64,000 bases of DNA, taken from the NCBI GenBank assembly GCA_000165425.1, contig CT868009.1:124001-188000 (forward strand), in the 5' to 3' direction. The stretch is from Paramecium tetraurelia (Eukaryota). The position numbers and the translations under genes are program-made. Position 1 is the stretch's first letter; the number at the start of each line of letters is the position of its first letter. The notes under the pieces were generated by a model. That model saw only the letters and a list, made by a program, of their open reading frames with translations. It was not told the DNA's origin and did not search any database. Shown here piece by piece: positions 44,025 through 45,730 of this stretch.

Positions 44025-44249
44025 AAATTTTATTTTTTTTAAAAGAAAAGTTGTTAATAAATAAAATTATTCCTAATGCTTATCAACATAATTTATGATT
44101 GTAAATTTTTCAATTTGATGTTAATATATTTTTAAACTTTATTTTTATAAAGATTATTGATTAAAATTTTTATGAAAATTTAAAAATCTCTGCTTATAAG
44201 TTCGCCATAAATCGAATTTGATTTGTGGTCAAATCATTACATCTACTTA

Positions 44250-44511
44250 AGCAAGCAATAAAAATTGTTTTAAAAAAAATTTCATCGATGATTTCATAAT
44301 TGCCTTGTCTCGGGAATTCTTCCCCTGAGCCTGCCTTAGTACCTGAGGGACTTGGGAAGGCTTAGAGTAGGCAAGATGACATTCAAGGGGACGATGGAAG
44401 GAAGAAGGGAATGAAAAAGGTTAGAATCAAAAATTAGCCCCTTATTGATAAACCGGCTGGGCCTGGTAGCCTGGAGAAGGATGTTGAATTATCTAGCAAG
44501 CAATATAAATT
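44250..44511 (+). repeat. Direct repeat AGCAAGCAATA(A/T)AAATT at ~44250-44266 and ~44495-44511
   Basis: Read directly: agcaagcaataaaaatt versus agcaagcaatataaatt. Confidence 0.8.
44299..44505 (+). ncRNA. Candidate structured non-coding RNA (GC-rich island, family not recognised)
   Basis: Markedly GC-richer than the flanks. The 5' and 3' ends are complementary (ATTGC[C]TTGT/GCAAGCAAT). Long hairpin 44329-44372 with G-U pairs; stems GGGAA/TTCCC, AAGGGG/CCCCTT and CCGGCT/AGCC[T]GG. Confidence 0.5.
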
Positions 44512-44596
44512 TTTATAGAATGAATTTTCAATTTTAAAAAAATACGAAAATATGTGATATTAATGAAATAATTATAAAAGTCAATTAAATTTTTAA

Positions 44597-45730
44597 ATGA
44601 AACAAGAGGACACCCAGCTTTTTTAAAAACCTTTAGATAAGTAAAAGAAGCTACTAATTAAGAAAATAATGATATGGGTCAGATAAGGATTCAATTCAAG
44701 AAATATTGGGTTCCATCCATTCTTACTTTGTGCATCAATCAAGCCTGGAGCTTAAAAAAGACATACTACACTTCAAAGCTATCCCAACGCCGAGTTATGG
44801 AGGTGTTTGAGTAAACTAAACCAATAAGATATTAAAACAGAGATATAACAAGAGATCCAGAGTAAGTTAGACGATGTAATAAAAAATTATGATGTCTCAA
44901 TTATAAAAGAGTTTAAGATTAGAGTGAACAATAATTTTGATTTTGCTTACCTATATAAAGAAACAGAAAAAAAGAAACCACAACAGAATGAAAATCTTGA
45001 AGTTCTTGATTTTTAAAATTTAAATCATCCTAATCAATAAGAAAGAGATGAAAGTGAATCTAAATCCTTAGTTAAGCAAATTTTATTGTGTAACACTAAG
45101 CAAGGTTCAATTGCAGATTTTGAGAATAGCCATTACCACAAATTGTCGTAGTTTCTAGAAAAAGTGAAGCCCTTTATTAATTAATCTTCGATTGAATTAA
45201 ATCAATTTTATTAAGGCGTATAAACTTTTCTAGAATCTTAATAAACGACTCCTTTAAAAAAAATGAAATTACATCAAATAGGAGAGGCTGAATAAGAAGA
45301 AGAAAAATAAGATTAAAACAATATAAAATTCCAAAAATAGAATTTATAAGAATAGTAATAGAAGTAGAATTTAAATTTTGAATAAGAAGAATAATTTAAT
45401 CATTAATCTCAATAATAAAGGATGAATAAATTTAACAAATCCCCATAATAACTCTTAGATGAATTAAAGTTAGATGCTTTGAAAACATAACCAGGGTTAT
45501 CATTTTTCTTACCAAATTATGATAAGATGTCGCCTGAGGAAGCTGAAAAGGTCAGAGAAATCGAAGCCAATTATTATAAAGAGCTATACTTTTTAAAAGT
45601 CCTACAACCACAAGATTACAACCCAAAATAGATCTTACTAATTTGGAGGCTTTATTTTGAGCCATAATTTAAGAAGCCAAATAACCTACTCTCACTATAT
45701 TAATAATAAAATATCATTAAAAAAGAATGA
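44597..45730 (+). CDS. Hypothetical 377-aa protein with Q/E-rich centre
   Basis: Intronless 1134-nt ORF under the ciliate code (MKQEDTQLFQKPLDKQKKLLIKKIMIWVRQG...NIIKKE*). Confidence 0.8.

Follow-up and report, generated by a model that had tools for sequence, protein, structure and literature searches.

The locus considered here raises the question of why a short intergenic stretch of Paramecium DNA is so much richer in G and C than its surroundings, and whether it encodes an RNA. The window, by which we mean the whole 64-kb stretch of DNA that was analysed, is AT-rich ciliate DNA (GC 0.29) that codes under the ciliate code. Within it, positions 44299 to 44505 have a GC content of 0.464, which ranks first among the 12,759 overlapping 207-nt windows and surpasses the peak (0.449) inside the 16 long ORFs that served as the coding sample for composition. 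There are 15 islands with a GC content of at least 0.42 in 120-nt windows, and 14 of these lie within open frames of 147-2190 codons; the island in question, with an open frame of just 111 codons, is the sole one that lacks a long reading frame. The first-pass annotation, which had singled out this region as the GC-richest intergenic stretch, was therefore right about composition. It was right, too, about the plus-strand gene that it placed downstream (44597-45730), the protein of which (P0001) is matched over its full length by orthologues from P. octaurelia (79%) and P. primaurelia (64%); these orthologues imply that 44597-45730 is a real host gene and also that the searched collection includes Paramecium proteomes.

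The answer that emerges, in which we place high confidence, is that the island is what remains of a Group 4 non-LTR (LINE) retrotransposon of Paramecium after truncation, namely, its first ~235 bp. The feature is a new copy of an already known transposon family, unusual in its 5'-only form. A repeat search found AGCAAGCAATA[A/T]AAATT in two copies, at 44250 and 44495, with a spacing of 245 bp, and the presence of a direct repeat bracketing the island led us to suspect an insertion and, hence, to examine what has been published on Paramecium transposons. The putative SINEs RE1A and RE1B, as given in the available parts of PMC5405496 (Guerin 2017), do not match the island, and it was the search for them that exposed the LINE match: 10-12-nt words of the island, matched in the accessible portion of the TE FASTA supplement of that paper, returned two consensus sequences labelled 'Group 4 non-LTR retrotransposon'. 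The parts of the locus, as we now read them, are the following.

44250 to 44259, plus strand: 5' member of the AGCAAGCAAT direct-repeat pair, putatively a duplicated target site (repeat family D1, spacing 245).
44260 to 44287, plus strand: A/T-rich 5' untranslated leader, ending in TTTCATCG before the ATG; its 5' limit is approximate.
44288 to 44494, plus strand: first 69 codons of the LINE ORF2, which encodes the APE endonuclease and reverse transcriptase; they form the leader that precedes the endonuclease domain and constitute the GC-rich island; assigned by homology.
44494 to 44495, plus strand: breakpoint TA, at which the LINE homology (…GAATTATCTA) ends; its A is the first base of the 3' repeat.
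44495 to 44504, plus strand: 3' member of the AGCAAGCAAT direct-repeat pair, putatively a duplicated target site; it contains the 3' stem arm drawn in the first-pass annotation.
44304 to 44375, plus strand: candidate for a conserved RNA domain at the 5' end of the LINE family, from by-eye covariation in eight printed consensus sequences.
44457 to 44474, plus strand: hairpin CTGGGC-CTGGTA-GCCTGG with six pairs and with compensatory changes in the printed consensus sequences of the family, by eye.
44597 to 45730, plus strand: host gene with orthologues, in the same orientation, 102 nt downstream of the stub and outside the element.

The comparison set consisted of the nine Group 4 nucleotide consensus sequences from the P. 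tetraurelia germline and their nine proteins, as printed in the supplement of PMC5405496. One of the nine, RT17235, which is labelled non-functional, was left out because its divergence is too great for alignment by eye; the first ~245 nt of the remaining eight (RT38354, RT33852, RT31010, RT42890, RT4152, RT47195, RT25765, and RT36327) are collinear, by eye, with window positions 44260-44495. The window and the consensus heads have in common an A/T-rich leader, which in all eight heads comprises 20-34 bases rich in A/T and then T(T)(T)C(A/G)TCG or TTATCG, next TTTCATCGATGATGTCATAATTGG…, and so on through …GGAGGAGGATGTTGAATTATCTA, with the ATG context TCGATGAT.TCATAAT collinear between them. 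At the protein level, the published ORF2 products start M(M)SQLACLGNSSPGPALVPEG…KPAGPGSLEEDVELS (M(M)SQLACLGNSSP…EEDVELS) and go on to IISWNIHNQ, and the window ORF from 44288, read in the ciliate code, is MISQLPCLGNSSPEPALVPEG…KPAGPGSLEKDVELS (…LEKDVELS) and diverges afterwards, so that the N-terminal leader pattern of ORF2, M(M)SQ.AC…RVRFK…EEDVEL, is present in it. Aligned gaplessly with RT38354 over 44288-44494, the window copy is identical at 177 of 207 nucleotides (~86%) and 52 of 69 residues (~75%), and with RT33852 at 47 of 68 residues; the 30 base differences from RT38354 fall 10, 8, and 12 at codon positions 1, 2, and 3. All these counts were made by eye from the printed consensus sequences and could be off by a few.

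According to the available Table S3 of PMC5405496, Group 4 elements are 3264-3274 bp long, with ORF2 starting at nt 23-35, the APE domain at nt 224-242, and a 3' repeat TTA; for RT38354, the start of the APE domain is given as nt 242, which is codon 70. Past the breakpoint, the consensus sequences continue TCATTAGCTGGAAC (…IISWN) and the window continues GCAAGCAAT, such that the homology stops at codon 69/70, precisely at the annotated APE start of RT38354. The retained piece appears to coincide, in these annotations, with a discrete pre-domain module of the transposon protein. The stub resembles the printed Group 4 LINEs in its A/T-rich leader, in the sequence around its ATG, and in the 69 leading codons of ORF2 but differs from them in retaining only ~235 of ~3270 bp, with the APE and RT domains, the C-terminal CX2HX7HX4H finger, and the (TTA)n 3' repeats all absent and with no Pfam match on its ORF. 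It differs also in location: the stub is intergenic DNA of the macronucleus, but of all TE bases 92% are reported to be germline-limited and 8% to reside in macronucleus-destined DNA (PMC5405496), where LINE pieces are thus already documented. No further LINE copy was found within the 64-kb window.

A direct repeat of 10-17 bp brackets the stub. When the gene region was compared with the 270 nt upstream, the local score was 16, against a mean of 11.9 (sd 1.6) in shuffles, 3 of 300 of which reached 16; apart from this 20-nt repeat, local alignment found no decayed tandem copy up- or downstream. From their sequence and placement, the AGCAAGCAAT repeats look like a putative target-site duplication, although 10-mer repeats within 1 kb are not rare. 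Similarity of the left repeat extends to 44266-44269, an extension that is possibly the A/T-rich leader of the element itself; the target-site duplication may be only 10 bp long, since the left copy runs into A/T-rich sequence. With the identification of the stub, the compositional puzzle dissolves: the high GC content of the island is inherited from that part of the transposon and does not reflect a host RNA gene at this site. A false lead to a non-coding RNA is removed, in that an orphan-looking, GC-rich, foldable island in ciliate intergenic DNA proves to be a transposon remnant, and it seems advisable, before a non-coding RNA is called in Paramecium, to compare any GC island that lacks an Rfam match with the germline TE library.

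The form of the remnant presents another facet of the problem. A truncated LINE insertion is usually 5'-truncated, and the stub is the opposite. Indeed, a 5'-only copy with both flanking repeats cannot arise via ordinary 5'-truncating target-primed reverse transcription. The route that we favour, with confidence just short of even, is programmed, TA-bounded elimination of the ~3-kb body. In this scenario, a full-length Group 4 LINE would have inserted in the germline at this locus, and its body, from the breakpoint TA up to the final TA in the (TTA)n tail, would have been removed as a TA-bounded eliminated sequence during the formation of the macronucleus. At the breakpoint, the printed consensus reads TC-TA-TCATT. 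Were a (TTA)n tail to adjoin the repeat, the sequence there would be …TT-A|GCAAGC, and after precise excision TC-TA-GCAAGC would remain, which matches the observed junction. The match of the breakpoint itself to the consensus of IES ends appears poor. The IESs of Paramecium, which are TA-bounded and PiggyMac-dependent in the available accounts, leave behind a single TA, as found at the breakpoint (PMC5405496, PMC3464196), but their reported median length is 51 nt (PMC5405496), far below the ~3 kb of eliminated sequence that the stub would require. The stub, as a macronucleus-retained front end of a LINE, offers a simple test case for the trimming of LINE insertions near genes.

Two other routes have to be weighed against programmed elimination. 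One is internal priming, with reverse transcription begun on the tail-like ATTAT at the breakpoint; we consider this route possible though somewhat unlikely, and it would also explain the recurrence of the same boundary at a second locus (see below). The other, ordinary deletion of the LINE body at a later time, appears unlikely, if by no means outlandish.

The second locus came from a phmmer search with the 69-residue leader against 1.84 billion representatives, which yielded two matches below 0.001. One of these (P0008), a 1469-aa, internally repetitive protein with 11 stretches at 25% identity and unrelated Pfam domains, was set aside as a chance match. The other (P0009) is GSPATT00038485001, a macronuclear P. 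tetraurelia protein of 455 residues (phmmer E 2.3e-9), residues 1-66 of which are the LINE leader (36 of 68 identical in BLASTP, E 1e-19). The homology is lost after DVEL, that is, at the same boundary as in the window to within a codon. From this point on, the two loci differ: the frame of P0009 continues for ~390 residues, Q-rich, coiled-coil-like, and host-like in appearance, whereas the window frame stops after 20 further codons. P0009 is either a gene with a transposon-derived first exon or promoter, or else an artefact of the gene model. An independent second locus that keeps the same module with the same boundary suggests a specific process behind the stubs, either internal priming or programmed elimination at a favoured internal boundary being conceivable.

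The P0009 locus also bears on whether the stub has been put to use by the host. The stub is probably transcribed, in that one run that is recorded as RNA-seq contains 0.89 of the sampled island words. At least half of these words are present in 19 of the 24 listed sequencing runs. A biofilm metatranscriptome run (X20) contains 0.11 of the sampled words and carries no evidential weight. In a separate observation, the small runs X13 and X14 from one sample hold all the sampled words, and X22-X24 from the same sample hold none. It could be envisaged that an internal promoter or start site of the LINE drives or modifies the gene 102 nt downstream. The stub lies just upstream of, and in the same orientation as, 44597-45730; its words occur in the RNA-seq run; the printed elements have a 5' untranslated leader of no more than 22-34 nt, from which we infer that an internal promoter must overlap the retained part; and P0009 is annotated as a single protein starting with the LINE leader. 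Yet, the stub ORF stops at 44555-44557, before the downstream ATG, the loci in question are only two, and the P0009 model may be an annotation artefact, so that exaptation of the stub seems to us distinctly improbable.

A different possibility is that the significance of the island lies in the RNA of the transposon family rather than in the window copy. Taken on its own, the window copy does not fold unusually well: the minimum free energy on the plus strand is -55.78 kcal/mol, compared with a mean of -56.87 (sd 4.54) in dinucleotide shuffles (z 0.24), and 115 of 200 shuffles do no worse, with z 0.59 for the minus strand; the 12 kcal/mol difference between the strands recurs in the shuffles and is, therefore, compositional. 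The pairings listed in the first-pass annotation do exist where it placed them, but its description of the region as extensively base-paired does not hold beyond chance. The picture changes when relatives are compared. Among the eight printed Group 4 consensus sequences, which are reconstructions, four helices show compensatory changes by eye, one of them at synonymous sites. The comparison covered the eight consensus heads and the window, with lower-case letters taken at face value and relatedness ignored, and the by-eye covariation is, accordingly, a lead rather than a result.

A long-range helix joins 44304-44309 with 44370-44375 (CTTGTC/GGCAAG) and is complete in seven of the eight consensus sequences and in the window, with five of six pairs in RT36327. 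Its second pair is T-A in four consensus sequences and the window, G-C in two, and A-T in two, and these are the third bases of an Ala codon (GCT/GCG/GCA) and of CAA/CAC/CAT; two more pairs vary as T-A/T.G/C-G and C-G/T.G/T-A. The hairpin GGGAA-TTC-TTCCC (44312-44316/44320-44324), which had been proposed from the window sequence and turns out to be conserved, has at least four pairs in all eight printed consensus sequences and undergoes two double changes, becoming GAGGA/TCCTC in RT4152 and GAGG/CCTC in RT25765 and RT36327. A third helix, 44331-44335/44355-44359 (CTNNC/GNNAG), is complete in seven of the eight with six combinations of its two variable pairs and carries one mismatch each in RT33852 and in the window (G.A in the latter). 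The fourth is the hairpin 44457-44462/44469-44474, with all six pairs in six of the eight consensus sequences and the window, five of six in RT31010 and RT42890, and changes of the types G-C/A-T and C-G/T-A. In addition, the start-codon region could pair with ATGACAT in a 7-bp helix (44291-44297/44376-44382) that is intact in seven of the eight, with wobble changes only, and is broken by one mismatch in the window copy. Both the long-range helix and the GGGAA hairpin recur in the centroid structure that ViennaRNA gives for the window copy.

Only one of the four helices conserved in the printed family sequences is exactly a stem drawn in the first-pass annotation, and the rest of that model fares unevenly. 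The pairing of the two ends, ATTGC[C]TTGT with GCAAGCAAT, is not shared by the relatives, its 3' arm lying in the flanking direct repeat; the long hairpin 44329-44372 and the AAGGGG/CCCCTT stem (three of six pairs in RT38354) are not conserved by eye in the printed consensus sequences, and the suggested pseudoknot is not supported. Where CCGGCT was paired with AGCC[T]GG, a hairpin is indeed conserved, at 44457-44474, but in a different register. The overlapping 89-aa ORF, which had been named together with a lack of compensatory stem changes as evidence that would count against an RNA, is homologous over its first 69 codons to the ORF2 leader, and compensatory changes are nevertheless apparent in the printed relatives.

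These patterns suggest that the 5' RNA of the Group 4 LINE family may be structured, and a cis-acting element is plausible. The conserved helices may form a Y-shaped fold with the start codon at its base and a separate hairpin just before the endonuclease domain. Such a 5' domain could serve in protein binding, as does the 5' RNA of R2, in translation control, or in definition of the 5' end. The closest precedent would be provided by R2 retrotransposons, in which a structured 5' RNA overlaps the start of the ORF, and HDV-like ribozymes are found at the 5' ends of R2, RTE, and L1Tc elements. The likeness to the stub would lie in a conserved structure at a non-LTR 5' end that overlaps the ORF start; HDV-like ribozymes, however, adopt a nested double pseudoknot, whereas the helices of the stub would form a Y-shaped domain, and there is no Rfam ribozyme match. 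The full proposal, namely, that the first ~200 nt of Group 4 LINEs are coding and yet form a conserved, cis-acting, multi-helix RNA under RNA-level selection, and that the stubs are kept by a specific process, perhaps as host promoters or first exons, is one that we advance tentatively, inclining to doubt rather than to belief. No mention of a 5' RNA element of Group 4 LINEs was found in the available portions of PMC5405496, and, if true, the covarying helices of the 5' leader, along with a second stub that continues into a host ORF, would represent a novelty among ciliate LINEs.

The view from which the analysis started, that of a functional non-coding or cis-regulatory RNA, survives in its second half, as a plausible cis-acting RNA of the transposon, and not in its first. 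An independent structured RNA gene of ~205 nt, with a terminal stem and with transcription ended by the T5 run at 44511-44515, would be in keeping with the composition of this GC-richest intergenic stretch, with the lack of a T4 run inside it followed by the T5 run, and with the island words in the RNA-seq run. Against it stand the end-to-end homology to the coding 5' end of the printed LINE sequences, the origin of the 3' arm of the terminal stem in flanking repeat DNA, the shuffle-level fold (z 0.24), and the results of the searches for RNA genes: Rfam gave no gathering-level matches in the whole window and, at E <= 10 on 501 nt and 225 nt, only chance-level miRNA-like and similar matches; ARAGORN found no tRNA; and no snRNA-type PSE within three mismatches was detected between 43546 and 46672. 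Such a gene is already largely refuted and strikes us as extremely improbable.

Several specific RNA classes had been entertained, and the motifs behind these leads proved to be variable coding positions of the LINE leader. The template of ciliate telomerase RNA is the complement of G4T2/G3T3 repeats; neither CCCCAA nor CCCAAA, nor the complement of either, occurs here, and there is no Rfam Telomerase-cil match. For RNase P/MRP, CUUGGGAAGG resembled CR-I, a resemblance already remarked upon in the first-pass annotation, and AGAAGGAU with AUCUAGC could be drawn as CR-IV/P4. Neither RNaseP_nuc nor RNase_MRP matched at E <= 10 on 225 nt, nor did the CR-V consensus, and the CR-I-like GGGAAGG is simply the codons G-K-A of the LINE leader, which vary among the printed relatives. 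The criteria given in the available text of PMC13184271 are CR-I, CR-IV, and CR-V forming P4 and, for MRP, a GARAR P8 loop and a 6-nt CR-IV; a GARAR pentaloop with a closing stem is absent from the locus. A reading of UUAGUAC…CUUGGGAAG as a 5S-rRNA-like loop E found no 5S match and was superseded by the LINE homology. The Arisong/PM01 small RNAs of ciliates possess a 3' tail, GUUC, that is conserved, along with a PSE 50-60 nt upstream, according to the accessible part of PMC3177221, and both GTTC and GAAC are absent from 44205-44559. C/D and H/ACA snoRNAs, hammerhead ribozymes, and Pol III A/B boxes were likewise dismissed, as their diagnostic motifs are missing or occur in the wrong order.

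Hardly more credible is a functional gene for a small protein of 89 residues (44288-44557), for which the frame open from ATG to TGA and a codon score of -0.083 per codon (in-frame coding windows, 0.049, sd 0.094; off-frame, -0.311, sd 0.169) might be adduced, but which has no Pfam match and no similar protein of 48-156 residues in the collection that contains Paramecium proteomes, the 69 homologous residues of which are the pre-domain leader of a transposon protein of ~1068 residues in the published set, and in which the 10/8/12 distribution of differences from the printed RT38354 gives no sign of purifying selection. The window ORF (P0002) may, all the same, represent a small protein or the 5' part of a transcript, and its apparent lack of relatives is explained by the restriction of that search to 48-156 residues, which excluded the long LINE proteins.

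Searches for a foreign origin were consistent with this outcome. The island had no match in E. coli genomes and two only in plasmids, of 29-37 nt at E 0.7; two exact-pattern scans of a metagenome collection returned no relatives; six 17-20-mers of the island were not found as printed sequence in the literature; and a search with the 57-aa ORF read under table 11 gave no candidate. An exact 23-nt match of island positions 44453-44475 to a Nesterenkonia MAG (L001, 301-323), with no further similarity around it, was rejected as a chance hit in a GC-rich genome. The matching segment of that MAG is located just upstream of an apparent tRNA gene.
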